Assembly (NCBI GenBank): GCA_963727445.1
Contig: CAVSGI010000010.1
Coordinates: 256,001 to 320,000, forward strand
DNA from: an uncultured delta proteobacterium
GTDB lineage: Bacteria; Myxococcota_A; Polyangia; Polyangiales; B10-G4
Direction of reading: 5' to 3'
Length of the DNA stretch: 64,000 nt
The notes beneath the pieces were generated by a model. That model saw only the letters and a list, made by a program, of their open reading frames with translations. It searched no databases and was not told the origin of the DNA. Made by a program: the position numbers and the translations under genes. This document shows, piece by piece, positions 3,480-63,822 of the stretch (positions are counted from its first letter, which is position 1; each line of letters begins with the position of its first letter).

Positions 3480-5177
3480 ATGGCCGCAACTCTTGATCCT
3501 CGGCGACTCGCCCTCGCGCTGGCACTCACCTGCTTCGTCCTGCTCCTCTCGCTGTCCGCGAGCGCACAGGCCCCGCTCCTCACCGGCCTCGGTGGCGCGC
3601 GCGATTTCGGCACCGAGTGCCTGTCGCCAAACGACGACAGCTCGTCGTCGATCATCGACCTCACGCCCGCCTTCCCCTCCGGGCTCGACTTCTACGGTCG
3701 GCGCCACACGTCTGCGTACGTCAACACCAACGGCAACATCTCCTTCACCGAGTCGCTCTTCGAGTACACCCCCGATCCCTTCCCGATCGCCGACCAGCCG
3801 ATGATCGCGCCCTACTGGGCCGACGTGGACATCCGCGGTGCAGCCTGCTCCGGCTTCGACGGCTCCCTCGGTTGCTCCGATCCGATGGACAACGGCGTGT
3901 GGTGGCACCTCGAGGACGGCCTGATGGTCGTGACCTGGAACGACGTCGGTTACTTCGCCTGTCACGACGACAAGAAGATGAACTTCCAGCTCATCCTCAG
4001 CGCCGCCACCGACGGCTGCGGCGCCGGGGGCGACTTCGACGTGGAGTTCCGTTTCAACCGCTGCGAGTGGCACACCGGCGACGCCAGCGGCGGCGCCGAC
4101 GGCTTCTGCGATCCGATGCCGGGCTTCGACACCTGCGTCCCGGCTCAGTCCGGCTTCGACGCCGGCAACCTGACGGACTTCGTCGAGATCATGGGCTCGC
4201 GCACCGAGATGATCCACACCATCCTCTGCACCGAGTCGAACGTGGACGAGCCGGGCGTGTGGCGTTTCCAGATCCGCTCCGGATCCGTCATCTGCCCGGA
4301 GGCCGGCGACACCTGTGACACCGGCATGACCGGCGTCTGCGGCGACGGGCTCACGCAGTGCGTCGGCTCCGGCATCTCCTGCCTGCCCATCATCGGGGCC
4401 TCCGACGAGGTCTGCGACTCTCTCGACAACGACTGCGACGGGATGACCGACGAGGGCGACGGAATCTGCGGCGAGCTCTCGGTCTGCGAGCGCGGCGTCT
4501 GCACGCCCCTGTGCTTCGAGGGCGGCTGCCCCGATGGGCAGATCTGCAACAGCGCCGGCCGCTGTCTGGACGAGGGCTGCGACGGGGTGGAGTGCGACGA
4601 GGGCCAGCGCTGCATGGCGGGCAGCTGCGTCGATGCCTGTGAAGGCGTCGTCTGTCCCGAGCCCCTCTCCTGCCGCTCGGGTCAGTGCCTCGACATCTGC
4701 GCGACCCTGACCTGCGACGACTGCACCGTCTGCGACGACGGCGCCTGCGTGCCCCGCTGCCCCGACACGCCCTGCGAATCGGGGATGGAGTGCAACGCCG
4801 AGGGCCGCTGCGTGCCCTCCGGCTGCTCCACCGTCACCTGCCCGGCCGGCCAGGCGTGCGCGGGCGGCACCTGTCAGGACGCCTGCATCGGCGCGGTCTG
4901 CCCGCCCGGTCAGGAATGCGCCATGGGCGCCTGCGCCCCGATCAATCGCCCGATGCCCGACGCCGGGATGGGGGGCGACGCTGGCACCATCGACGCCGGG
5001 CCGGACGCCACCCTCTGCCCCATCGGCTTCGACTGCAGCGATGGCGGAATGGAAATGCGCGCCCGCGACAGCGGCTGCGGCTGCGCCACGCCCGGCCTGT
5101 CCCCGACCGGCAACCCGCCCTTGTGGGCGCTGGCCCTCTTCCTGGCCTTCGCCGCCCTGCGCTTCCGCCGCCCCTGA
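3480..5177 (+). CDS. Nidogen-like domain, Cys-rich, MYXO-CTERM surface protein
   Basis: Signal peptide, NDD...FYG...YVNTNGNISF...IAPYWADVD, many Cys repeats, C-terminal GCGC + hydrophobic segment + RFRRP. Confidence 0.8.
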   Translation: MAATLDPRRLALALALTCFVLLLSLSASAQAPLLTGLGGARDFGTECLSPNDDSSSSIIDLTPAFPSGLDFYGRRHTSAYVNTNGNISFTESLFEYTPDPFPIADQPMIAPYWADVDIRGAACSGFDGSLGCSDPMDNGVWWHLEDGLMVVTWNDVGYFACHDDKKMNFQLILSAATDGCGAGGDFDVEFRFNRCEWHTGDASGGADGFCDPMPGFDTCVPAQSGFDAGNLTDFVEIMGSRTEMIHTILCTESNVDEPGVWRFQIRSGSVICPEAGDTCDTGMTGVCGDGLTQCVGSGISCLPIIGASDEVCDSLDNDCDGMTDEGDGICGELSVCERGVCTPLCFEGGCPDGQICNSAGRCLDEGCDGVECDEGQRCMAGSCVDACEGVVCPEPLSCRSGQCLDICATLTCDDCTVCDDGACVPRCPDTPCESGMECNAEGRCVPSGCSTVTCPAGQACAGGTCQDACIGAVCPPGQECAMGACAPINRPMPDAGMGGDAGTIDAGPDATLCPIGFDCSDGGMEMRARDSGCGCATPGLSPTGNPPLWALALFLAFAALRFRRP

Positions 5178-41529: not shown

Positions 41530-41557
41530 AAACGGCCAGCCTTTCGGCTGACCGTTT
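41530..41557 (-). terminator. Hairpin downstream of the displaced tRNA 3' half (probable original tRNA terminator)
   Basis: Minus strand AAACGGTCAGCC-GAAA-GGCTGGCCGTTT. Confidence 0.7.
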
Positions 41558-41604
41558 CGGAGCGGGCGATGGGATTCGAACCGACGACATTCAGCTTGGG
41601 AAGC
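41558..41604 (-). repeat. att site: 3' half of tRNA-Gly(CCC)
   Basis: 47-bp direct repeat of 46575-46621 with 2 mismatches. Confidence 0.93.
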
Positions 41605-41949
41605 CAACGACGGCACGAGCAATCTCGGGAGGTTGCGACCCAGCGTGGACGCAACGTGGACGATGTCGAGGGACTTGCGACCGCGGTGCTCGCGCTGGCG
41701 CAGACCGAGGTCGATCTTCCGGCCGATCTCGCCATCCGGCTGATCGACGCCGTGCTCGCGTCGGCGAGTGAGATGGTCAAGCTCGCCCTCGCGGCGAGAG
41801 AAGGCGGCCCACATGCGACCCGTCACCTGATCGACCTTGCAAGCCGCGTTCTCTCGAACGTCGACGACCGCAGGGAGCCGCAAGCAGCCGCGGTGGGAGA
41901 CGCAGCGACGTCGCCGATTGGATCAGAGGGAACCATCGAACCCGAGTAG
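41605..41949 (+). other. Displaced 3' end (114 codons) of the element A integrase gene
   Basis: Open frame continues from GFEPTTFSLGS, the same peptide that ends the integrase at 46624. Confidence 0.7.
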
Positions 41950-41965
41950 GGCGAAACACCAAACA

Positions 41966-42024
41966 CCAGCCCCTCTGCGGCGGTGGCATCCACCGCAGAG
42001 GTCGTCGCACGAGGCGACGGCTGG
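41966..42024 (+). ncRNA. Candidate structured RNA/leader (three-way junction) upstream of primase
   Basis: CCAGCC/GGCTGG closing stem enclosing CCTCTGCGG/CCGCAGAGG and GTCGC/GCGAC hairpins. Confidence 0.3.
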
Positions 42025-42055
42025 AGCCCGCCGCGCACACGGAGGACGGCGGACA

Positions 42056-43807
42056 GTGGACATTGTAGGCCAACAAGAAGTCGACCGCGACCAGCTCATT
42101 CCGCGAGATAGAGATCACCTACGCGGGAGCGGGCTCACGGACGAGACCATCAGGAGAGCAGGTGTCTACTCCCTGCGGAGCCCGGCGGACGTTGCACAGG
42201 CGCTGGGTCGGTCATGGGTCCGAGGCGGTGGGATCGCTTTCCCCGTATTCCTTCCCGGGGAATCGAAGCCGGACCACATTCGCGTGCGTCCACACGAGCC
42301 GAAAATGCAGGGACGCGACGGGAAGGAACGGCCCCGTAGGTACGAAGGGCCACGGGGTCGGAGTCCCGTCTACTTCTCTCCGCGCGCGCGAGCGCAACAA
42401 TGGACCGACGAGATCCTTGTCGTTGAAGGTGAGAAGAAGGCCCTCCTCCTGGACCAGCTCGGGTACGCGGCGATCGGGTTGATCGGTTGCTGGCAGGCGC
42501 ACGACAAGCCTCACAAGGACAAGACCGGCAAGTGGCGGCTGCATCCCTGGATCCGCGCTTACGTGCCGGTGAGCGGTCACCAGATCGTGGTGGTGGCCGA
42601 CGCGGATGCGTCCGTGAACCCCGACATCGCCGCCGCGGTCCGCAAGCAGATCGTGATGTTCCGTACTGCGGGTGCGGAGGTTCGGGTCGTTCACGTGCCC
42701 GACAGCGGGAAGAAGAAGAACGGCATCGACGACTTCTTCGTTCGCGCGGGCGAGGAGGCGACGAGAGCCCTGTTGAAGCAGTCGCACGCCGAGGCAGGCG
42801 TGACGGCAGTCGATAGCTGGATCCAGCAGACAGTCATCGAGATCGGTGATACCGCACCCCGTGACGGCGAGCCCGTGGTCCTATACTTGGGGCGAAATAG
42901 GCAGACGCCTGTGTTCAGGTACTGGCCATTGCCAGGCGTGCTTTCCATGTTCGGGTTGGGGTCGGCACGCACGCTCCTGCTCGCGCGTATTGCACGCCTG
43001 GCCGATGATGATGGCGTCGCCCATGGCCGCAAGACTTGGTGGTACGACGACGCCACGGCGATGCTTGGAACGCGTGGCCTCGCGAGGGCCCTAGGACTAC
43101 GTTCACCTGGAGGGGTCCTCAAACATCTACGAGCCCTCGAACAGGCCGGGTACATCGATCGAGAGCATCAGTGCGGTGCGGCCCGGTTGCCCGACACGAT
43201 AACGATCCGGCCTTTCATCTGGCACTATTGGGGATGCGGGGGCAGGTGGTTTCGCGAGGACATCCGTCGAACTGATGTTGTCCCGGACCACGTGATCGAG
43301 CACATCATCGAGAACAAACTGGCCATCAAGGATGACTGGGCCTGCTACACGGTCGGTGGAAAGCGCTTCGAGAGACTCCATCACCTGACCAACGCGATCA
43401 GGGCCGACGAGGCATGGGCCCGCGCGACGGTGCACGAGGCGGTGGCAAGCGGTACCCTTGCGGACCAGCTTCCGATCCGCTGCCCTCCCGACCGGTACTG
43501 GAACGTCATGCACGTCCCGGAGGCGCTGGTCGCCCTGCGACTCGTCAGCCATCAGGCCGCTCTCGTGTACACGCGGATCGTCTGGCGAAACGGCAGCCTG
43601 GGACCCCGCCCGCTGGACCGCCACGATCTCGCCGAGTATGTCGGGCTCTCCTCGACCGATGGCTTGCGCCGCTACCTGCGTGAACTCTATCAGGTGGGTC
43701 TGCTCTCCAGGCTCCCCAACGGCCGCTTCGTCCCGCTGATGCACGAGTGGCTCCGTTCACCCGGTGCTCTGATTGACGGCAAGACAGTTCGTCGCTGGTC
43801 GGGTTGA
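42056..43807 (+). CDS. DUF3854/TOPRIM-like primase fused to two HTH-like regions (replication protein); start approximate (frame open from 41837)
   Basis: HLRGSGL, VVEGEKKA, VVADAD, NGIDDF; later LARALGLRS...HLRALEQAGYI and LAEYVGLSS...YLRELYQVGLL. Confidence 0.75.
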   Translation: MDIVGQQEVDRDQLIPRDRDHLRGSGLTDETIRRAGVYSLRSPADVAQALGRSWVRGGGIAFPVFLPGESKPDHIRVRPHEPKMQGRDGKERPRRYEGPRGRSPVYFSPRARAQQWTDEILVVEGEKKALLLDQLGYAAIGLIGCWQAHDKPHKDKTGKWRLHPWIRAYVPVSGHQIVVVADADASVNPDIAAAVRKQIVMFRTAGAEVRVVHVPDSGKKKNGIDDFFVRAGEEATRALLKQSHAEAGVTAVDSWIQQTVIEIGDTAPRDGEPVVLYLGRNRQTPVFRYWPLPGVLSMFGLGSARTLLLARIARLADDDGVAHGRKTWWYDDATAMLGTRGLARALGLRSPGGVLKHLRALEQAGYIDREHQCGAARLPDTITIRPFIWHYWGCGGRWFREDIRRTDVVPDHVIEHIIENKLAIKDDWACYTVGGKRFERLHHLTNAIRADEAWARATVHEAVASGTLADQLPIRCPPDRYWNVMHVPEALVALRLVSHQAALVYTRIVWRNGSLGPRPLDRHDLAEYVGLSSTDGLRRYLRELYQVGLLSRLPNGRFVPLMHEWLRSPGALIDGKTVRRWSG

Positions 43808-43867
43808 TGATGCCCACGTAGGCCGCGGCAGTAGCCCGGATGGCACCCACCGCTACGTGGTCGTCGT

Positions 43868-45256
43868 TCAGGGGACCATGGTACGAGCCGAAATCACGAC
43901 GTCGCCATCGCTGCGAACCGCGAGATCTGTGGCCCACTCGTCCGGTCCTGGCAAGTCACCGGGAGACCGAAACCACGTGAGGCCATTCAAGTCCACTTGA
44001 TACAGTACCGCTTGGTTGACGTCATCGTCATCGACGTGCTCGTAGCTTCTTCCGACCACGAGGATGGAGCCGGGCTCCGGTCGAAGTTGGATGCCATAGG
44101 CCGACTCGTGCCAACGTGCGGTGGTACCGAGAAGAGCGTAGCCCGTCATGAATCCGAACGAGGTGTCGAGCGCACCCGTTGGGCCGAGGGCCGCTACTAC
44201 AATCCGGCCGGCGTGGAGGCCCCGCTCCGTATCGAAGGCCGTCGCTGTTGCTGCGAGCAGCAACCTGCCCTCGCCGTCGAAGACACCGCCGTTCGCCCAG
44301 GAATGCCCGGTCTCGCCAGTCATGGCCGAACCGGGAAGAACGGCAAAGCCGGTTCCTGAGCCTCCGAACGCAAGATCCGGGGTGCAATCTTCTGCGCGAA
44401 TCTTGCCGACCCAGATCGAGCGAACGCTGGAAAGAAGATGAAGTTGACCGATGAGGTAGATGTCGTCAGTTGCCGGATCGATCGCGAGTCCGCGTACGAC
44501 CACGTTGCTGGTCAGGTTGGCAGCCCCACCTCCATCGCTCGGGAAGAGCTGCAACCACTCGAAGACGCCGTTCTGTCCGCACGACGGGTCTGGATTGCCA
44601 TTTTCATCGAGTCGGGCCACGACGGGTCTCCCATACGCCGTCAACAGGTCGAACCAGCCATGCCCGGCGACCACGATTCGCCCCAGTGAATCCAGGCCGA
44701 TGTCTGTGGCGCGCTCATCGCGAAGCGTCGGAGAGTCGATCAACTCGTACCCATCCACCGCCGCAGCGTCACCGAAGGACAGATCCCTCACTCCCGTGGC
44801 CGTGTAGCGAGCCACCGCCATGCGGCCCGGAGTAGAAACATAGCCGGCCGCAACGAGGTAGTCGGTGGCAGCCAGGTTCTGGTAGGCGACAGCGGCATAC
44901 TCTTCGTCGGCAGAGCTAAGAAAGTCCTCCACCACGCGACCAGAACCGGAGCCGAACGCGGGATCCTCAACGCCAGTAGACAGATAGCGCGCCAAGGCAA
45001 ACACTCGGCCCGACGCCCCGGTCCCAAAGCCCACCGTGGCGAGCCCGTCGGCGGGGTCCACCACGATGTCGTTGGCTTGCTCGCGAGGGCCACTGAAATC
45101 GGTGGAGCGCGTCCAGAGCCGATCGAAAACGAGGCCGGTGGAGAGCGCCGGCCGCGTGCACGCTCGGAAATCCGGTGATACGTTCGCAGCATGACTCGTT
45201 CGTTGTTCGCAGAGACAACGATGGTGTTCCTCCTGGTGGGCTGCGGCGTCTCTCAT
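43868..45256 (-). CDS. Delta-60-repeat (beta-propeller-like) protein, ends uncertain
   Basis: Repeats of type LARYLSTGVEDPAFG, ARYTATGVRDLSFG, GALDTSFG. Confidence 0.7.
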   Translation of the reverse strand: MRDAAAHQEEHHRCLCEQRTSHAANVSPDFRACTRPALSTGLVFDRLWTRSTDFSGPREQANDIVVDPADGLATVGFGTGASGRVFALARYLSTGVEDPAFGSGSGRVVEDFLSSADEEYAAVAYQNLAATDYLVAAGYVSTPGRMAVARYTATGVRDLSFGDAAAVDGYELIDSPTLRDERATDIGLDSLGRIVVAGHGWFDLLTAYGRPVVARLDENGNPDPSCGQNGVFEWLQLFPSDGGGAANLTSNVVVRGLAIDPATDDIYLIGQLHLLSSVRSIWVGKIRAEDCTPDLAFGGSGTGFAVLPGSAMTGETGHSWANGGVFDGEGRLLLAATATAFDTERGLHAGRIVVAALGPTGALDTSFGFMTGYALLGTTARWHESAYGIQLRPEPGSILVVGRSYEHVDDDDVNQAVLYQVDLNGLTWFRSPGDLPGPDEWATDLAVRSDGDVVISARTMVP

Positions 45257-45640
45257 CCCGCGGACGACTCCGGCTTCGACGCAGACGCGAATCCCCCGGA
45301 TGCCGGACTAGATGCCGACGGATCTGCGGATGTTTCCGCGTCCGACACTGATGCCGCCCGTGACGCCGATGCCTTCGATACCACCCCTCCGCTGATCACC
45401 ACGTGCGAGGGCCTGTATGCCTACGAGGCCCGCTGCATGGAGGAGTTCAGCTCCTGCACCGAGATCGAGCCCAGGGTGATCTCTCACGGCTGTGATGATG
45501 AGCTGACAGCGCTCTTTGCTTGCTTCGTGGAGGAGAGGTGCATTCCGTTCGCCTGCGAAAGCGTTCGCTTTCCTTTGCTGGACTGCCTAGACGCCTACTG
45601 TCGGAGGATGCCCACACCACCTGAGTGTCCCGATACGTAG
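45191..45640 (+). CDS. Small Cys-rich lipoprotein
   Basis: Lipobox LLVGC, D/A-rich linker, C-terminal domain with 10 Cys. Confidence 0.65.
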   Translation: MTRSLFAETTMVFLLVGCGVSHPADDSGFDADANPPDAGLDADGSADVSASDTDAARDADAFDTTPPLITTCEGLYAYEARCMEEFSSCTEIEPRVISHGCDDELTALFACFVEERCIPFACESVRFPLLDCLDAYCRRMPTPPECPDT

Positions 45641-45699
45641 GCGTCGTCGCGGGGGATACGCGTGAAGAAGGTGATGACCGTGGTAGTTGGTCAACGGAG

Positions 45700-45797
45700 G
45701 GACCGAAAGTGAACGCGGGCTGGACCAAGAGTGAACGCGAGCCTCTCAGGCGGACCAAGAGTGAACACGGGGTCGAAAGTCTGGACCGAAAGTGATC
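45700..45797. repeat. Iteron-like direct repeats GGACCRARAGTGAWC
   Basis: Copies at 45700, 45722, 45752 and 45783 plus a partial at 45771, followed by an AT-richer tract. Confidence 0.7.
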
Positions 45798-46624
45798 ACC
45801 CTTTAATCCCTGATCTCAGATCAATCCCAGAAGACGGAGAAATCCCAATACGCCGCTCGCTCTGCTCGAAGGGGATATCGGCGGCCGTCGACCCAACCGC
45901 GCGTCCCAGCGACGTTTCGGACGATTGGTTGCGACCGGTGGAAATCGATCAGCTCCTCGAAAGCGAGGCCATCCCGATCCACCTGCGCACCGTATACGCT
46001 GCCGCCATCGGACTCGCGCTCCGACTGAACGACCTCAAGAACGCCGAAGTCGCCCACGTCGACCTAGACTGCAAGGTACCGGGCCCCGGCATCCGCGTCT
46101 GGATCAGCAAGTCGAGGATCTACCACCGGGTTCCGATCATGCCTTGGTTGGTGCCCATTCTCAGGGAGCACATCGCACGGCTCCCGCCGGGCTCGCGCTG
46201 GCTCTTCGCAAACCGGAAAGGAGAGCGCTACTGCAAGGGCTACGATTTCAAGTGGGCCGAGAAGAAGGCGAAGCGGGGGGCCTACGACTCAGCGCTCACG
46301 ATCGCCGGGGTGGACCGCCGGATTCGGTTCCACGACCTCCGAGGCACCTGCGCAACGCACCTAGCCCTCGGTACCTGGGGGCGGGCGTGGAGCCACTTCG
46401 AGATCCAGAAGATGCTCGCGCATTCGGACGCGAAGGTCACCGAGCGCTACCTCAAGCGCGTCGTGGACCCGCTCGCCGACGCTGCCCGGAACACGCCCGG
46501 TGGGCCTCGGTTCGGCGTCCACGGCCGTCCACGCCGCGAAGGCGTGGAGGACGTGCAGCCCAACGAGATCAAAGCGGAGCGGGCGATCGGGTTCGAACCG
46601 ACGACATTCAGCTTGGGAAGCTGA
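45731..46624 (+). CDS. Tyrosine recombinase/integrase A (catalytic domain; N-terminal domains apparently missing)
   Basis: ALRLND (R), ISKS (K), FHDLRGT (HxxR), LAHSD, TERY; runs antisense into the tRNA and stops there. Confidence 0.85.
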   Translation: MNASLSGGPRVNTGSKVWTESDHPLIPDLRSIPEDGEIPIRRSLCSKGISAAVDPTARPSDVSDDWLRPVEIDQLLESEAIPIHLRTVYAAAIGLALRLNDLKNAEVAHVDLDCKVPGPGIRVWISKSRIYHRVPIMPWLVPILREHIARLPPGSRWLFANRKGERYCKGYDFKWAEKKAKRGAYDSALTIAGVDRRIRFHDLRGTCATHLALGTWGRAWSHFEIQKMLAHSDAKVTERYLKRVVDPLADAARNTPGGPRFGVHGRPRREGVEDVQPNEIKAERAIGFEPTTFSLGS

Positions 46625-46650
46625 CACTCTACCAACTGAGTTACGCCCGC
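46578..46650 (-). tRNA. tRNA-Gly (CCC)
   Basis: GCGGGCGTAACTCAGTTGGTAGAGTGTCAGCTTCCCAAGCTGAATGTCGTCGGTTCGAACCCGATCGCCCGCT forms a complete cloverleaf; CCA is not encoded (CCG follows). Confidence 0.96.
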
Positions 46651-46662
46651 AAGTGACCGATG

Positions 46663-46691
46663 TTCTTAGCCATTGCCTCCTTCGGCGTCAA
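46663..46691 (-). promoter_or_regulatory. Element-supplied sigma70-type promoter for the central tRNA
   Basis: TTGACG-N17-TAAGAA, 12 nt upstream of the tRNA, overlapping the integrase B stop codon. Confidence 0.6.
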
Positions 46692-47879
46692 GCTCCCCCG
46701 AATCGTCCCCAGACCGATCCCCAGAGTCGGCCGGCGCGGAGCCGTTCTTGGCCCCTTGGACGAGCCGAAGAACCCTCCTGACGGCCGCCCGCTTCTCGTC
46801 GCCCTCGACGAAGGAGTAGTGGGCGGTCATCGCGTCGGTGACGTGGCCCATGAGGGCCTGAGTGACGATCGGGCTCGTCACCTGTCGCGTGAGGTTGTTG
46901 TTCGTTCGCCGGAGACCACTGCCGAGCGTCACGCGCCGATCGATCTTCGCAGCGGCCAGTACCTTCTTCCAAGGGTTACGAATCCCGCTCCCGTTCCGGA
47001 TGATCTTCCCCACCGTGGAAGGGAAGACCAGGCCGGAGGCGATGCGTGCGGCGTCGCCTTCTGACAGGAGACGTTCGCGGTGATCCTTCAGGATGTTGGC
47101 CAGGTAGGGCTCTATGGGTACGCCTCGAACCCTGATGCCCGTCTGACGCGTGGTCTTCAGCTTTGGCTCGCTATCTCCCTGGTACTGCGCCCGCCGGAAG
47201 GTAATCTCCGGTATTTGGAAGTCGACATCCTTCCATAGCAAGGCGCTCACGGCTCCGTAGCGCGCCCCTGTCAGCGCGATAGTCGCGAAGAAGGGATGCC
47301 ACTGAGGAGTGACCTCCTGTGCAGCGACCAGAACACGCGCCAACTCCTCAGCCGTGAGTCGATTCGAGTCCTCTTCTTCACTGGACGTCTCTTCGCGTAG
47401 ATAGCGAACCCGAGCGGCGGGGTTCACGGACAATCCGAACTCCACGGTCATGTCGGACATCATCGTCTTCACCACGCGAAGGTAGCCGTTCGCCGTGACC
47501 GGCTGATTGGGTCGGGTATCGCGCCACTTGCAGACATCGCGGTGCTTCACGGCATCCACGTAGAAGTCGCCCAGCCATCCGAGGTGGTCGAGCGCGTTGC
47601 CGTAAGTGTCCAGCGTCGATTTAGCGATCTCGCCGGCCTTTGATCTCAGCCACGATTCGGCGAAATCTGCGACTCTTTGCCGTGGCTTTGGTTCCGTCTC
47701 GTTGAGTAGCTCTTCCCTCAGCCTTGCTCGGATCGCCGCCGCGTCCGCGGCGCTTCGCGCCTGAACGATCCGAATCCCACCTCCTTTTGCTTTCCGGTTC
47801 TCGGGTCCATTGTCGTTGCCCGGACGCGGTAATCGCCTTTCCGGACTCTTCTTACACCTGGGTACTTCGTTGGTTTCAT
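46666..47879 (-). CDS. Tyrosine integrase B (probable frameshift near 47775)
   Basis: GGAGG-N5-ATG start MKPTKYPGVRR...DPRTGKQKEV, then in another frame VADFAESWL, TGARYG, SGLRRT, MGHVT...HY. Confidence 0.85.
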
Positions 47880-47884
47880 CCCAA

Positions 47885-48156
47885 CCTCCAACCCCAGGCG
47901 CTTCGTGCCGGGGGCAATGGTCCCCCCGCCGAAGGAAGGAGTCGAGCGTCGATTTCAGGTACAGCCGCCGTCGCCGAGAGCCGGCGTCGGGGGTGAGGTG
48001 GCCGCGCGCCACCGCGGTGCGCAGGCCGGAGGCGGTCATTCGGCAGTAGGCAGCGGCCTCCTCGGTGACGAAGTAGGGCGACACTCTCCCACTTGGTCTT
48101 TCTCGATCGTCCTGCGCATGGCGATCCTCGATCGCACGGTCGTCTTCGTCGCGCAT
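47885..48156 (-). CDS. Excisionase-like HTH protein (boundaries approximate; as sequenced, in frame with the integrase body)
   Basis: PYFVTEEAAAYCRMTASGLRTAVARGHL...RRRLYLKSTLDSFL. Confidence 0.7.
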
Positions 48157-48271
48157 CGCATCCAGATTTCTCCGGAGGCAGGAGCCACGAGTTCCGGTTG
48201 TCGTCGCTCACGAGGGAGCGCCATGGTGTCCATCTCATGGTGTTCAGCGGGCGGGTTGTTGTCTGTGTGGG

Positions 48272-48870
48272 CTACTCGAATGCCCACGTGCTCTCGTTCA
48301 GCTCTCGACCGTTGAGTAGCTGCACGCTCCAGCGGACGCGAGACCCTGAGCCCCGCCCGTTCTTGATCGCGACCTGCACCGACTCGCGGATGCACTTCGC
48401 GCCATCCGCTGGGTGCAGCAGCCCGCGAAGAACGGCATCGACGATCTTCCACCGCTGCATCCACGCCCAATGCGACTCGGACTGCATCTCAAGAAGCGCT
48501 GCGAGCAGCGGGGGCTTCAGAGCACCGACAATGACGTCGGGATCCCCACCAGTGTCCGAGGTGACCTCGACAGCAGCGCGCCAGATCACCCTGGCCAGCT
48601 CGATGCATCCGCGCAGCCACGCCGTGATGAGTGAAGCCGAGGTACTTCCGCGAGAAGCGGCAGAAGCTGCCGCCGATGTATCGGCGGTGCAGCTTGCGGT
48701 GCTCCACGGTCTCCAGAATCTCGCCCCAGAGGAGCAGATTGTAGACATCGGCCTTGAGCGCGGTCTCCAGGACGCCGCGGGGAAGGACGTGGGTCCGGCC
48801 CGAACTCGACAGCAGGTGCTCGGGATCGAAGATAGAAGGCGCCCTCGGCGTCAACGAGTGCGTCAACGCC
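48272..48870 (-). pseudogene. Phage-like hypothetical (DUF3102-like helix motif), split over two frames
   Basis: WGEILETVEHRKLHRRYIGGSFCRFSRKYLGF... joins ...CIELARVIWRAA across a frameshift. Confidence 0.35.
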
Positions 48871-48989
48871 GAGGGCTTCAAGCTGTCCGCGGTGCCCGGC
48901 CGGATAATCGATTTGGGTGTCCCGGTCCCATGACTCCTATGGGGCCTATGAGAGCGGGGACCTGCCGCTTGGGCAGAATGGCGGGGGTC

Positions 48990-49292
48990 AGTCGGCCCCC
49001 GCCCTCGGCCGTGCCTAGTGCGGAAAAGAGAAGTGATGTCTCGGAGTTCAGGGAACTCCAGGTCGACCTGTTCGAGCGCCGACCAAAGTTTGAGATTGCC
49101 CGCCGCGGGTTCGTACGCGCGGAGCCAGGACTCTAGGACCTGCATGCGGTTGGTGGTGTCGGGGGCACTCGCCCCAAGCCTCCCGAGCAGGTTCCACACC
49201 TTCGCGGCCCGGGAGTCGGCAGCGCCCCTCGAAGTACTCGAAGCCCAAGAAGGTGAACGGGTCCCGGATGCCCCCAACGCTCCGCTTGTACT
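48990..49292 (-). pseudogene. Possible reverse transcriptase C-terminal remnant (domains 6-7 plus thumb)
   Basis: YKRSVGGIRDPFTFLGFEY then, after a 1-nt shift, AAKVWNLLGRL...VLESWLRAY; no YxDD present. Confidence 0.35.
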
Positions 49293-50994
49293 CGGAGTGA
49301 CCTCGGCGGTTGCGCAGTACACCCCCGCGTGCTGGGCGGACCCTCAGCCCGAGGGATGTCCTTCGAAGCGGCAACGTCGATGTGTATCTCAACGTCGATA
49401 CGATCGGCCTATATGAAAGATCCTGACACGCTACGAACAAGCGCTGCTCGAAGTGCTCGCGGTTTGGAACGGGCGTTCCCACGCAGACATCAACCTAGAG
49501 TATCGCGGGAGAACCAGTGACACGAAGAAGGGTCCCAACACGCTCGTCGTCGACTTCATCGAAAGCTTCTTCTGCGACACGCGAGCATGCCCTCAGATAA
49601 TGGTCGGCGCTCAAGGCGTCTCCAACTGCTCCGGTGAAGGAGCCTTTGTCCAAGTAGTCCTCCGCGATTGCGTGGCGCCGCCGGGCTGAAGTGCGCCACC
49701 CGGTGCGTGCAGCGAGAACAACCCGTACGGGCCGTGGATGCCTGATACCGCACTCCGCACTTGGTCGACGGACCGCTCCACCGGCATATCTTTCCAGGGG
49801 ATCCGACCCACGAACTGGGTCATGCACTGGCCGGCGTCGGGCACACCACCTGCCCGGGCACGATGGAGGCGACCGCATGGGGTGCCGGGCAGCCCGACTG
49901 CATCCTGTACTCCGAGGATCAGTTGGCCATTCGTGGTGCCATCGGCTTCACATGGGACACCCCGAAGATATCCGAATCATCCGACGGACTAAACTGGGTC
50001 TCAAAGGTCAACGCCAGTGCCAATCCCTGGGCCGGCTCGCATCCCAGTTCGACCACTCTCTATGGCGCTTTTCCACCAGCGGTTGCCGGTCTGCCTTCGT
50101 GGTCTAATGAGCGAGTTCAAACCACCACGCTACTTGTCGACTACGCCGAGCGGTTCCGAAGCGTGGGAGACGTAGGGGGATAGTTTCCGCTGCCCTCGAC
50201 GACCGGCGACTTCAACGGCTCGACGCTGGCGGTTAGCTGGTTTGGCGCAGTACGCGGACGCGACCGCATCCTATTGCGATCCGGGACCGTTCCCAAGCGG
50301 CATGAGTGGCTGCCACCTGTTTCTTGCGTACGCCGTCGGCAGCGCGACGCCCACGGTTGGCTCGTACACACCAACTACCGGTGTAGGGACTGGAGAGGCG
50401 CCCAGAGTCCAGTACAATCCGGCGTTCGATGAGTTTGTCGCATTCTTCATAGACGCCGATACAGGCCAACTGAGATGGATGCGGGCACCCGCGATCAGTG
50501 GAGCGTGGGGACCTGACGCCCCGGTGACCGGCGCTGTCGGCGGAATGATGTTGCGGCACCTCGGCGGGGTTGTGTTTGATCCAACGACCGGAGACGGTCT
50601 GTTGACTGCCACACGAGACGACGGGACACCCCGCAATGCTATCTGGCAGATCGGACTCAATCGGACACCGTCGGGAGCCTACAACGCGTTTGCCGTGGGA
50701 CCCGCCGGAACGATCGTTGGGGAGCATCAGACGTTCAGCGAGTTCGGGATGGCGCGCGCCTCGGATGGCCGCGTGCTCCTAGCCTTCAGCGCGACGATCC
50801 CGATGGCTCCGCCATTTGCGTGGCGTCGCCGCTTGATGGTCTCCGAGAAGACCTCCATCAACCCAGGAGTACCGTTCCCGACCCCGTCGGAGCCGGGTAG
50901 TCCGCCCGTAATCAGTGAGGTGGGAGTCGATCTCACCTACGATGCGTTTGAAGACCGCTGGATCCTTGGTGTGGTGAAGGCAGAATGGGAGTAG
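49290..50994 (+). pseudogene. Matrixin-like (metzincin) secreted metalloprotease, fragmented by frameshifts and probably 5'-truncated
   Basis: EVLAVWN...INLEYRG, THELGHALAGVGH...GTM (Met-turn)...LYSEDQLAIR, followed by a beta-rich C-terminal region. Confidence 0.6.
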
Positions 50995-50996
50995 CC

Positions 50997-51458
50997 ATGA
51001 CTAGACTCATTCCTCTGATCGGCGTTGCGGCCGTGCTTGGTGGCTGTTCACTCTCCCACGAAGATGAGACCACGCCCTCGTCTTCGGAGTCTGTTGCGAC
51101 TCCCACGCCAGCTCCTTCCCCTCCTCCTCCATCCTTCCATGCCCCAGACGGGTGGAACTGTGCCATCTCGACCCACGCGGCCTGGCGGAACCAAACTAGC
51201 TGGGCACGTACGATCGTTGTTGAGTCCTCCGAGCAGGTTTCGGCCGAAGGAGAGTACCTGCGCGAGTACGCCATAGTGCCGTCGGTTGAATCGCCCACGC
51301 GAGTCGGTCGCGTATGGGCGCTTCCTGAGCTGGGCCAACCCGACGGCGCGTTTGTGGCACTCCTCGATTCTGGCGATCAAGTCTTCATGTGGGCACCTCT
51401 CAATGATCGGGTTGTCCATTTCGCTGACGAGAGAGCGACCCTCGATGACCTCTTGTAA
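50997..51458 (+). CDS. Hypothetical lipoprotein
   Basis: MTRLIPLIGVAAVLGGC lipobox, Pro-rich linker. Confidence 0.6.
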   Translation: MTRLIPLIGVAAVLGGCSLSHEDETTPSSSESVATPTPAPSPPPPSFHAPDGWNCAISTHAAWRNQTSWARTIVVESSEQVSAEGEYLREYAIVPSVESPTRVGRVWALPELGQPDGAFVALLDSGDQVFMWAPLNDRVVHFADERATLDDLL

Positions 51459-51747
51459 CTCCTTCTTCTGGGTTCTGGTCCTCGCTCTCGTATGCGTGAG
51501 CTGCTCTAGCAGCAGAACTCCCTCCGATGGAGGTGTCGACGCATCGCTGGATGCCGCTGACAGCGGTGGGGAAGATGCTCTTGACGGCGCTTCGCATGAC
51601 GCCGCGCTCGACGGCGCATCGTCCGATTCTGACGCCACTGACACCATGTGTCGCGGGATGGAGGAGCCGTGCACCGTTGACGAGGACTGCTGCTCCTACG
51701 CGTGCTCGGTCCGCCTCCGCCTTTGCGGAATGCCAATCGACCCTTGA
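51445..51747 (+). CDS. Small lipoprotein with C-C-CC-C-C (knottin-like) C-terminal module
   Basis: Signal/lipobox VCVSC, D/A/S linker, CRGMEEPCTVDEDCCSYACSVRLRLC. Confidence 0.65.
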   Translation: MTSCNSFFWVLVLALVCVSCSSSRTPSDGGVDASLDAADSGGEDALDGASHDAALDGASSDSDATDTMCRGMEEPCTVDEDCCSYACSVRLRLCGMPIDP

Positions 51748-51874
51748 TGGGGTCAGTGCGGGATCCCCAGAGCGATCCCCAGACCCGGTGGGACACCACG
51801 AAGCGGCACGAAGCGCCTAGGGACGCGATTGCTTCGTGATTACCGAATCTGCGAATCGTCTCGTGGTGGCTTGA

Positions 51875-51917
51875 TCAGCTTGGGAAGCTGACACTCTACC
51901 AACTGAGTTACGCCCGC
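51875..51917 (-). repeat. att site: 5' half of tRNA-Gly(CCC)
   Basis: 43/43 identical to 46608-46650. Confidence 0.94.
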
Positions 51918-51929
51918 AGAGGAGCGGGA

Positions 51930-51957
51930 TAGTTAGCTACGGCGGGCGGGGCGTCAA
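51930..51957 (-). promoter_or_regulatory. Probable original host tRNA promoter
   Basis: TTGACG-N16-TAACTA, 12 nt upstream of the tRNA 5' half. Confidence 0.5.
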
Positions 51958-51963
51958 GTGGGC

Positions 51964-52623
51964 TCAAGGGGTGAGGGGCGGTGCGGGAGGCGCGCGGGTC
52001 ACGACGAGTTGCAGGTCGAGTTGGGCCTGTCCTTGGGGGACGGCGGGCGGGACTGGGGCGTCGATCAGGGTGGCTTCGATGCAGTCGACGGCGTCGGCGT
52101 AGGCGAGGAGGGAGTCGGGGAGCGCGTCGGTGGGGACGGCAGGGATGATGTCCCAGGCGACGGTGACGGCAGTGACGGCAGGGCGGTCGTCGATGACGAG
52201 GCGCAGGAGCAGGTGGCCCTCGACGTCGGCGGAGAGCGGAGCGACACAGCGCCGGAGCTCGGCCTGGGTGGCGTCGAAGAGGACGCGCGGCGAGTCGGCG
52301 GCGTGAGCGCGGCTCAGCTCGAGCGCGACGACCGTGCGCGTCTCGACAGCGACTTCGTCGTTCCACGATTCGGACGATGGCGGTGCTTCGGGGTTCGTCG
52401 GCACGAACGCGCTCGGCGCGTGCTGCGTCCCGGTCGCGAACGCGCGGTTGCGACGCACCCCGGGGAGAGTGTCGGCCGCGGTCGCGCGCTCGGCGCTTGC
52501 CCCGTCGGCCGCGGCCGCGCGCTCGGCGCTTGCCCCGGGGAAAGTCGTGGGCCGTGTGGAGGCGAGGCCCGAGCCGCAGGCAGCGAGGATCAGGGCGAAG
52601 AGGAGGAGCAGGGCGCGGCGCAT
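51964..52623 (-). CDS. Lipoprotein with AgmX/PglI-like C-terminal fold
   Basis: MRRALLLLFALILAAC lipobox; ELRRC...VDCIEATL...P. Confidence 0.55.
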   Translation of the reverse strand: MRRALLLLFALILAACGSGLASTRPTTFPGASAERAAAADGASAERATAADTLPGVRRNRAFATGTQHAPSAFVPTNPEAPPSSESWNDEVAVETRTVVALELSRAHAADSPRVLFDATQAELRRCVAPLSADVEGHLLLRLVIDDRPAVTAVTVAWDIIPAVPTDALPDSLLAYADAVDCIEATLIDAPVPPAVPQGQAQLDLQLVVTRAPPAPPLTP

Positions 52624-58451: not shown

Positions 58452-61010
<2,559 letters not shown>

Positions 61011-61128
61011 CGCGGCTCCGGATGGGGGTGCGTTTCAAACACATACGGCCCCCCGGGGTTGGGGGTCAAGGATCACGCCGGTTTCTCCCGACGAGGAAAA
61101 CCGACCGAGGCGGCCGAAAAGTAGAACC

Positions 61129-62460
<1,332 letters not shown>

Positions 62461-62470
62461 TCGCGCGCTT

Positions 62471-62932
62471 CTACTTCGTGACCTTGAAGAGGCGGTCGCC
62501 GTACTCCACGGGCTTCCCGTTCTCGACGAGGATCTCGAGGATCGTTCCGGAGACGTCCGACTCGATCTCGTTCATCAGCTTCATCGCTTCGACGATGCAG
62601 AGCACGGTGCCGGTCTCGATCTTCGAACCGACCGCCACGAAGGGATCCGCGTCGGGGCTGGGCGCGCGATAGAACGTGCCGACGAAGGGCGAGGTGACCC
62701 ATTGGACGTCCTCGTCCACCTCCACCGCCGCCGCTGGGGCCGCCGCCGCGGGCGCCACCGAGGGGGTCGCCGAAGCGACTGCGGGCGCACCGATCGTCAC
62801 GACGCTCTCGTTCGCGGCCGGGCCTCGGCGCAGGCTGATCCTCTCGTCGCCGTGCTCGAGCTCCAGCTCGCTGACGTCGAACTCCGACAGGGAGCGCATC
62901 AGCTCCCGTAGCTGCTCGATGTCGATGTCCAT
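62471..62932 (-). CDS. accB: Biotin carboxyl carrier protein
   Basis: [20 protein letters not shown]. Confidence 0.96.
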
Positions 62933-62978
62933 CTTCCGTGGGTCTCCTTGGCCTCGCGTGTCTTCTCGCCGCAGCGCG

Positions 62979-63461
62979 TCAAGAAGATCGGGTGGTCTCG
63001 TGCTCGGGGGACTCCAGATACTCGATGAGCGCCCGAAGTCCAAGCGCATAGCTCGTGGGGCCGAATCCGGAGATGGTTCCCATGCAAACGGCGGAGACCA
63101 GGGACCGGTGTCGGAACTCCTCACGCGCGAAGATGTTGCTGAGGTGGACCTCGACGGTGGGCAACCCCACCCCCGCGATGGCGTCGCGGATGGCGACCGA
63201 GGTGTGGGAGTAGGCCGCCGGGTTGATGAGGATGCCGTCGAAGTCGTGCATCGCCTCGTGAATCCAGTCGATGATCCGACCTTCGGAGTTGCTCTGGCGG
63301 CACTCGACGACGCCGCCGAGGCTCGCTGCGATCGGGGCGAGCGCCGCGTCGATGGCCTCGAGGCGAATGGTTCCGTAGATGCTCGGCTCGCGCTGGCCGA
63401 GGAGATTCAGGTTGGGGCCGTGGATGACGAGCACCCGCGGCCTGCGCCCGCGTGCGGACAC
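62979..63461 (-). CDS. aroQ: Type II 3-dehydroquinate dehydratase
   Basis: [41 protein letters not shown]. Confidence 0.96.
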
Positions 63462-63462
63462 G

Positions 63463-63822
63463 TCAGCCCAGATCGTCGCGCAGCTTGCTCGCCGCGGTTC
63501 GCAGGCGGAAACGCGCCTTGCCCGTGTTGCCGTCGGGCCGCAGCGCGACAGCCACGAAGTACTCGTCGTTCACGAAGCGGATGACCGTCGTCATGCGCTC
63601 GGCCTTGATCGACACCTCGGCGGCCGAGCCCGAATCGAGCATCTCGGCGGCGCGCCGAATGTCCTTGAGGATGACGCTGTACTCCATGCCCACGGTCTCG
63701 ACGTCGAGGGATGCGCCGTCTTTGACGTACTGATCGACGGGGATGCCATCGTAGCCCATCAAGAGCCCGGCCACTCCGCCTTCGGTGTTGTCGACGACTC
63801 CCTGCAGCACTTCCTTGAACAT
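63463..63822 (-). CDS. mglC: Roadblock/LC7 protein, MglC-like
   Basis: MGYDGI motif, [17 protein letters not shown]; position upstream of accB/accC/sgmX. Confidence 0.8.

Follow-up and report, generated by a model that had tools for sequence, protein, structure and literature searches.

The window analyzed here is a stretch of 64,000 nucleotides from an uncultured delta proteobacterium of the order Polyangiales (assembly GCA_963727445.1, contig CAVSGI010000010.1, positions 256,001 to 320,000), and its central feature is a tRNA-Gly(CCC) gene between two putative integrative elements, referred to as element A (left) and element B (right). The assembly is incomplete (9.47 Mb in 27 contigs, the window contig measuring 1.58 Mb). 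The ARAGORN call for this gene spans 46576-46650 (minus strand), and the 68 tRNA calls of the assembly include no second CCC gene. The cloverleaf of the gene is the minimum-energy fold, and it matches the corresponding gene of genome G022 at 74 of 74 positions. As the initial annotation had stated, a 14-bp core of its anticodon arm occurs in three exact copies in the window (41591, 46608 and 51875), the middle one within the intact gene; a search allowing up to two mismatches added no further copy there. The chance expectation for such a 14-mer was 0.36, and three copies were reached in one of 100 shuffles. The left copy extends over nt 30-76 of the tRNA (41558-41604, minus strand, 45/47 identical by BLAST) and the right copy over nt 1-43 (51875-51917, minus strand, 43/43 identical), so that they have only the 14-bp core in common. 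Apart from the copies in the window, the genome holds no other tRNA-Gly(CCC) 3' fragment. Between the two outer copies the GC content is 0.59-0.66, compared with mostly 0.68-0.78 outside.

The left partial copy is followed by a terminator-like hairpin (41530..41557, minus strand) with a folding energy of -22.4 kcal/mol (z -4.7; none of 200 shuffles as good) and a weak T tract, and a similar hairpin lies behind the tRNA-Gly(CCC) gene of G022. A TTGAC motif stands 40-41 nt ahead of both the right and the middle copy. Among 72 distinct loci of tRNA-Gly that were compared, 62 have this motif within 60 nt upstream, where the background rate is 0.017.

Element A measures 5017 bp from core to core and has the layout that the Islander catalogue uses to define an island: an intact tRNA gene, a co-oriented 3' fragment (nt 30-76) downstream at a distance of 2-200 kb, and a tyrosine integrase of family PF00589. 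The gene of integrase A (45731..46624, plus strand; PF00589 E 2.8e-14, above cut-off) encodes only the catalytic domain in its integrated form. Its open reading frame (ORF) extends across the tRNA 3' half, which it reads in antisense, and terminates shortly beyond the core; the claim that an integrase gene ends on either side of the full tRNA gene is thus correct for the tRNA and for the right side, but not for the left. At the far end of the element a second ORF (41569..41949, plus strand) opens with the same tRNA-antisense peptide and continues for 114 codons beyond the core, and this detached C-terminal tail is in frame with the integrase only across the junction of the middle and left copies. 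In addition, the integrase lacks about 180 N-terminal residues: its 87%-identical homologue P0002 aligns only from residue 183, and no counterpart of the P0002 N-terminus was found in the window or the genome. Neither the splitting of integrase A by its own att site nor its truncation had been noticed in the initial annotation. Just upstream of the truncated gene lie three 25-bp direct repeats (45700-45776) that occur nowhere else in the genome and may mark the event that removed the 5' part of the gene. A pair of 8-bp repeats at 41644..41662 (plus strand), with an inverted pair at 46516-46533, represents candidate arm sites of integrase A, as judged by reading the sequence. The remaining genes of element A encode a primase-like replication protein with a winged helix-turn-helix (HTH) domain (41837..43807, plus strand; Pfam DUF3854 E 1.6e-16, PHROG primase E 2e-5), a beta-propeller protein (43868-45256, minus strand; Pfam DUF5122) and a secreted-looking protein of 149 amino acids taken from the ORF list (45191-45640, plus strand).

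The left tRNA half differs from the intact gene at two positions, one of which breaks the T-stem pair 51:63. None of the 40 distinct intact Gly(CCC) genes in the fetched loci has an unpaired T-stem, and the T-arm of the left copy mixes two natural types found among these 40 genes. The computed empty site containing the left half is still called a tRNA by ARAGORN. The left copy is best read as a displaced half that has been freed from selection and is possibly a hybrid. One of the two differences creates an in-frame ATG shortly after a GGAG (41558-41571), from which the detached tail could be translated separately as a protein of 126 amino acids. As integrase A has lost its N-terminal, arm- and core-binding part and the displaced half has decayed, element A is probably stuck and unable to excise.

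Element B measures 5267 bp from core to core and shows the features of 5'-fragment islands, namely a co-oriented 5' fragment (nt 1-43) upstream of the intact tRNA gene and a tyrosine integrase of its own. Integrase B (46666..47879, minus strand; PF00589 30.1 bits against a cut-off of 27.1, PHROG integrase E 7e-44) belongs to a family that targets tRNA-Gly; it is co-oriented with the tRNA and points at its 5' end. The two integrases share no DNA similarity and, beyond one short stretch, almost no protein similarity, in keeping with the earlier claim that two different enzymes use one att site with opposite restoration strategies. A promoter-like sequence (46651..46692, minus strand; TTGAC, 17-nt spacer, TA) overlaps the stop codon of integrase B, and its spacing matches that of most of the 62 tRNA-Gly loci with TTGAC. 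Such a sequence is found at the same position in the co-oriented relatives L058, L070 and L074. Element B would supply the predicted promoter of the restored tRNA. An arm-like direct repeat of family D15 by the integrase end (46706..46730, minus strand; partner 51764-51788, 88% identity over 25 nt) brackets the element, and similar repeats stand at equivalent places in other loci of the family. The far arm (51764..51874, minus strand) combines this repeat with a motif, I24, that is inverted at 47892-47910, and it resembles the arms of G067, G036 and the 3'-type element L113. The 19-bp inverted match joins positions 47892-47910, just upstream of the integrase start, to 51804-51822 in the far arm, and is a candidate site for excisionase binding and autoregulation. 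An excisionase-like HTH gene upstream of the integrase (47880..48156, minus strand; Pfam HTH_17 E 0.002, below cut-off; PHROG MerR-like E 7e-6) occupies the same position in G020 and G035. The cargo of element B (48272..51747) consists of small ORFs, none of which reached the threshold for any Pfam or PHROG family, with a GC content of 0.60-0.66 against about 0.70-0.75 in the flanks.

Comparison of the 12 ORFs of both elements with the PHROGs yielded integrase, primase and HTH matches only, and none of the virion, terminase or lysis genes expected of a prophage. A single-query search of viral contigs detected no relative of either integrase, while an alignment of the A family gave one distant hit. 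Annotated phages searched with the integrases returned only XerC-level hits, and Mx8 was not among them.

Taken together, it is very likely that a single tRNA-Gly(CCC) gene was entered at its anticodon loop by two elements independent of each other, each with a tyrosine integrase. This reading is based on the separate arm-like repeats of each element, on stand-alone relatives with one-sided duplications and on the synteny of the right flank. The same evidence upholds the assignment of the 3' half of the middle gene to element A and of its 5' half to element B. Integration of element A would exchange the 114-residue tail of its integrase for an immediate stop and leave the tail at the far end, and integration of element B would place a promoter and a 5' half between its integrase end and the core. 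Each integration would regenerate a full anticodon arm, and therefore the two orders of arrival would give the same layout: the host promoter and 5' half, element B, the promoter and 5' half of B joined to the 3' half of A, element A, and finally the displaced 3' half with its hairpin. In principle each element should excise independently, and excision of B would return the host promoter to the 3' half supplied by A; a circle containing both would join an A arm to a B arm, a combination suited to neither enzyme. Because element A has decayed and the displaced 5' copy is perfect, A is probably the older element and arrived first. Element B looks younger and may still be active.

The unusual architecture of the left element recurs in the family of integrase A. 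Among 67 homologues, many end soon after the tRNA-antisense peptide and others are long-tailed, and 11 of the 57 tails scored match the tail ORF of the window at E<0.001. A hidden Markov model (HMM) built from 26 chosen long homologue tails, with the window sequence left out, hits this ORF at E 1e-11 and nothing else in the genome. It also hits a tail ORF behind the displaced 3' fragment in L183 and L188, which are stand-alone A-type elements of 6.1 and 4.8 kb with a 3' duplication only, L183 also carrying a homologue of the primase-like protein. In L191 the integrase and its tail are joined. Element A thus carries an integrase split in the manner of phage Mx8, with joined and split forms both present among the homologues. 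In 9 of the 12 A-family loci examined (of 21), the integrase reads antisense into a tRNA (Arg or Asn); of the other three, one stops just before the tRNA, one has the 3' half in sense, and one is a distant relative at a tmRNA. The antisense-encoded peptide changes with the target tRNA, and an A-family HMM detected no other close member in the assembly. The A-family integrases at L184 (3230-3500) and of the proteins P0057 and P0061 read the 3' half of tRNA-Arg in sense. The A family, too, seems to flip relative to its target.

Homologues of integrase B are present in 45 of the 401 genomes of the order. The family targets tRNA-Gly, mostly by 3' duplication, and the 5' type of element B is a minority. 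Among the 30 best genome loci, our own included, the integrase is co-oriented with a full tRNA-Gly behind the TTGAC motif in four, converges on a full tRNA in 20 and on a 3' fragment in three, and has no tRNA in the remaining three; in the metagenome sample (best 80 of 194 loci) 2/79 are co-oriented, 59/79 convergent and 18/79 unassigned, near-copies being included in both counts. Displaced 5' halves confirm the 5' type in G036 (at 31.6 kb), in G206 (at 5.9 kb) and in G067, where two 5' types stand in tandem; G206 and G067 provide stand-alone B-type relatives with a one-sided duplication. On a quick tree of 67 rows the 5' label changes at least five times, and an approximately unbiased (AU) test on 23 chosen rows (7 against 16; LG+G4) rejected a single 5' clade with p-AU 4e-9. 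The 5' type is therefore not monophyletic, and as integrases of opposite type are 77-81% identical in cross-type pairs, the restored side is labile within the family.

How the side changes may be read from the att sites. In 3'-type members the attP carries an antisense 3' half and a terminator between the integrase end and the core, where element B has its predicted promoter and 5' half. The anticodon arm of Gly(CCC) differs from its own reverse complement at three central bases only, and that of Gly(GCC) at one, so an integrase meets the same core sites in both orientations; this near-palindrome likely lets the B family use either half. The blocks of identity, which meet at the anticodon arm, start at nt 28-30 in A elements and at nt 31-32 in 3'-type B relatives, and end at nt 38-43 in the 5' types. 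It is conceivable, though we hold it only tentatively, that the restored side is a switchable property of the attP rather than of the enzyme, with the arm permitting either orientation and switching possibly taking place at two-sided loci. There, recombination would invert or exchange the promoter-tRNA-terminator segment where homologous integrase ends face each other across the tRNA; both halves and the promoter of the tRNA remaining in the host would then come from elements, and an element that is dead, here A, would become fixed as the donor of the better-paired half. We also considered a single 5'-type att module moving between integrases, and set it aside as the far arms of 5' types, although similar among themselves, also resemble 3'-type arms such as that of L113.

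The layout of the window is not unique. G036 provides another two-sided locus, where one tRNA-Gly(GCC) gene is preceded by a 5' fragment at 31.6 kb and followed by four 3' fragments. L162, with B-family integrases on both sides of a tRNA-Gly(CCC) gene and its fragments beyond the 21 kb covered, is probably a third. In both, homologous integrase ends face each other across the tRNA (88% identity over 153 bp and 71% over 486 bp, respectively) and are a possible substrate for type switching, a route that is closed to our window. The 3' array of G036 also contains an exact 414-bp duplication of the core, the tRNA 3' half and an integrase-end remnant (G036:C10:189000-192410). G020, with a 5' fragment, a full gene and a 3' fragment, was considered as a twin and rejected, its 5' fragment lacking nt 1-6 and no integrase being present in the 3.6 kb behind it. 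In this segment (G020:C23:21580-25300, L031), nt 7-39 of tRNA-Gly(CCC) are found together with arm-like repeats at a distance of 3.6 kb upstream from the intact gene; it encloses a transporter-like ORF, which we take to be SulP-like, and no integrase.

Within the assembly itself, a fourth copy of the core lies outside the window on contig C11 (5056-5098), together with a promoter-like motif, a 5' half and a B-like arm that is near-identical to the far arm of element B (91% over 203 bp). It shows a second B-like junction whose partner is not in the assembly. Given this copy, the statement that the middle gene is the only intact one is valid for the 68 tRNA calls of this incomplete assembly, and not beyond them. 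The C11 junction (4957-5158, L038) stands beside IS110, IS91-like and IS256-like transposases, and a cargo of cysteine-rich and FG-GAP proteins continues to the contig end.

The host side of the locus is best defined on the right. A block of aroQ-accB-accC-TPR genes lies directly upstream of tRNA-Gly(CCC) in G022 and G035, and its orthologues in the window (58452..63700, minus strand, outside the elements; Pfam names from the G022 copies) share this orientation and stand 6.5 kb ahead of the right copy. The right copy is therefore at the native locus, which identifies it as the host-derived 5' half and the outer att of element B, as far as gene order can tell. The adjoining host promoter-like sequence (51918..51958, minus strand), with its TTGAC 40 nt upstream, now faces into element B; upstream of it there is neither an integrase end nor an arm repeat, and a host-like ORF ends at 51964. 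Of the proposal that the host halves now lie 10 kb apart, the right half is thus secured by synteny, and the left half, the outer att of element A, is likely the original one of the host.

Several observations weigh against this account. The native status of the left flank lacks confirmation, because the genes that follow the tRNA in G022 have their counterparts on a different contig of our assembly, and this absence of synteny is compounded by the T-stem mismatch of the left half. As to the check proposed in the initial annotation, an empty site in relatives, synteny with G022 and G035 marks the right flank as native, but no site joining both flanks was found when three flank proteins were searched in five relatives and two further ones in G001. 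The latter, the only genome of the same genus (86% complete), contains no match to the 5' half; its flank orthologues lie elsewhere, and no tRNA-Gly is near its orthologue of the 53553 gene. The consensus promoter scan called a promoter at neither the right nor the middle copy, and the terminator scan called none after the left copy, so what stands of the promoter and terminator previously annotated beside the two half-copies is the TTGAC motif and the hairpin, respectively. No partner att for the C11 copy was found in the assembly, the family counts contain near-copies, and the B-family trees come from quick searches. Finally, the gene of integrase B contains one frame break near 47778, with homologue residues 3-31 and 33 onward in different frames. 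We do not take this break as proof of decay, as housekeeping genes of the assembly are broken likewise: at C12:240000-250000, ribosomal protein and RNA polymerase genes (presumably rpoB/rpoC) are split into many frames. With indel errors this frequent, single frame breaks are weak evidence for pseudogenes, and element B may be intact.

These uncertainties on the left side give room to the most serious alternative, namely that the left 3' half and its hairpin stem from an earlier, now deleted 3'-type element and that the 3' half of the host has been lost, which would leave the chimeric nature of the middle gene unchanged. In its favour, 3'-type elements of the B family have similar hairpins behind their tRNA, two natural types are combined in the left T-arm and the left side lacks synteny; on the other hand, the GC content returns to the host level left of 41500, two HMMs detected no integrase remnant there, and the genome contains no further 3' fragment. 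On balance we regard a lost element as rather improbable. Considerably less probable is a crossover of element A near the T-loop or the 3' end, which would leave the intact gene with a host-derived middle and make the left-copy differences element-derived. It would account for the unpaired T-stem of the left copy and for the identity of the middle gene with that of G022, yet it does not require a duplication reaching back to nt 30, as seen here, or to nt 28-29 at 100% identity, as in L183 and L188; nor can a constraint on the protein explain this identity, as the encoded peptide varies with the target tRNA in the A family.

A single composite element of 10.3 kb with a 14-bp core and a complete tRNA of its own, in which the middle gene was never split, would resemble the tRNA-dependent lysogeny of actinobacteriophages, for which PMC10865867 describes short cores and phage-borne tRNAs. 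The left and right copies do share exactly the 14-bp core, but there are two unrelated integrases, the arm-like repeats of each bracket only its own half, each half has stand-alone relatives with one-sided duplications, and the integrase A tail is in frame only across the middle-to-left junction, which together make this model scarcely credible. Misassembly of short repeats can practically be dismissed: although the assembly contains many indel errors and no public reads bridge the locus (one run, of depth ~2 and uninformative, gave no joints, no circle and no locus-spanning piece), the repeats are just 43-47 bp long in a contig of 1.58 Mb, their copies differ, the detached tail and arm repeats are placed as the families predict, and the layout recurs in G036.

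Each component of the two-element reading is already known: 5' restoration, tandem use of a tRNA gene and split integrases. Islander lists 159 of 3919 islands with a 5' tRNA gene fragment as well as 125 tandems (at least two islands each), and on account of Mx8 and SSV it also accepts att sites within the integrase gene (PMC4383910); Zhao and Williams 2002 is cited for 5' integration (PMC6563490; also referenced in PMC1635311). The rarity of the arrangement was accordingly overrated in the initial annotation, as both strategies are catalogued, and any encounter of a 3' and a 5' type at one anticodon loop will produce a two-sided layout. Like 5'-fragment islands, element B has its duplicated 5' half end at the anticodon loop and needs to bring a promoter; unlike them, it belongs to a family in which the 3' type prevails and the 5' type is just one of the states. 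The pTN3-like archaeal integrases target the 5' half of tRNA genes, which are then expressed from the integrase promoter, and element-driven tRNA expression is described as rare in bacteria (PMC8371274); in element B a separate promoter-like motif overlaps the integrase stop codon. Mx8 (and also Mx9) carries attP inside the integrase coding sequence, and integration gives a new C-terminus (PMC6070905, PMC4383910). Element A shares this design and a myxobacterium-like host with Mx8, but not the sequence family: integrase A is 27% identical to the Mx8 enzyme over 128 amino acids in a pairwise and 14% in a profile alignment, and a search of the Mx8 genome with the tail HMM gave no hit at E<=0.05. 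In contrast to Mx8, element A is an island of 5 kb that carries a primase gene and no virion genes, and the family to which it belongs targets several tRNAs (Gly, Arg and Asn). Tandem island arrays likewise re-use one tRNA gene, each element with its own integrase and fragment; the usual arrays stack up behind the 3' end and leave the promoter and 5' half of the host in place, whereas here the elements lie on opposite sides, and consequently neither tRNA half nor the promoter is that of the host. As in the tRNA-dependent lysogeny described in PMC10865867, the working tRNA of the host depends on element DNA; there, a whole tRNA lies apart from a short core, while here the intact gene is itself the shared att junction and forms where the two elements meet. 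Our literature search, whose coverage excluded older key papers, returned no description of a tRNA rebuilt from two elements.

Further loci of related kind were encountered. Contig C13 of the assembly carries a 4.2-kb 3'-type B-family element at tRNA-Gly(GCC) (351321-355591, L056) that shares a cargo homologue with element A. The metagenome loci L093, L099 and L103 are arrays whose tRNA-Gly(GCC) 3' fragments come in two pieces, nt 31-53 and nt 55-75, with about 65-70 bp between them, which points to small T-loop inserts. At C9:32019-35272, some eight atypical tRNA calls (Leu, Glu, Gly, Ser, Arg, Asp, Pro and one unassigned) are clustered, and the stretch L052 of G001 carries homologues of the genes next to them.

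The consequences for the physiology of the host are probably modest. Contig C12 carries a Gly(TCC) gene, and Gly(TCC) tRNA can read GGG by wobble, though a rough count across 2778 long frames puts GGG at about 21% of the glycine codons. Island finders that settle on one side per tRNA, or that take the detached tail for a gene, will draw such loci wrongly. In the window, elements use a single tRNA gene from its two sides, a clear example from nature in which two rare att designs, 5' restoration and attP inside the integrase gene, come together at the same anticodon loop. Of most interest among the new findings are the split integrase on the A side and the repeated switching between 5' and 3' restoration within the B family, whose 77-81% identical integrases restoring opposite tRNA-Gly halves constitute matched pairs for studying what determines the orientation of integration at a nearly symmetric attB.

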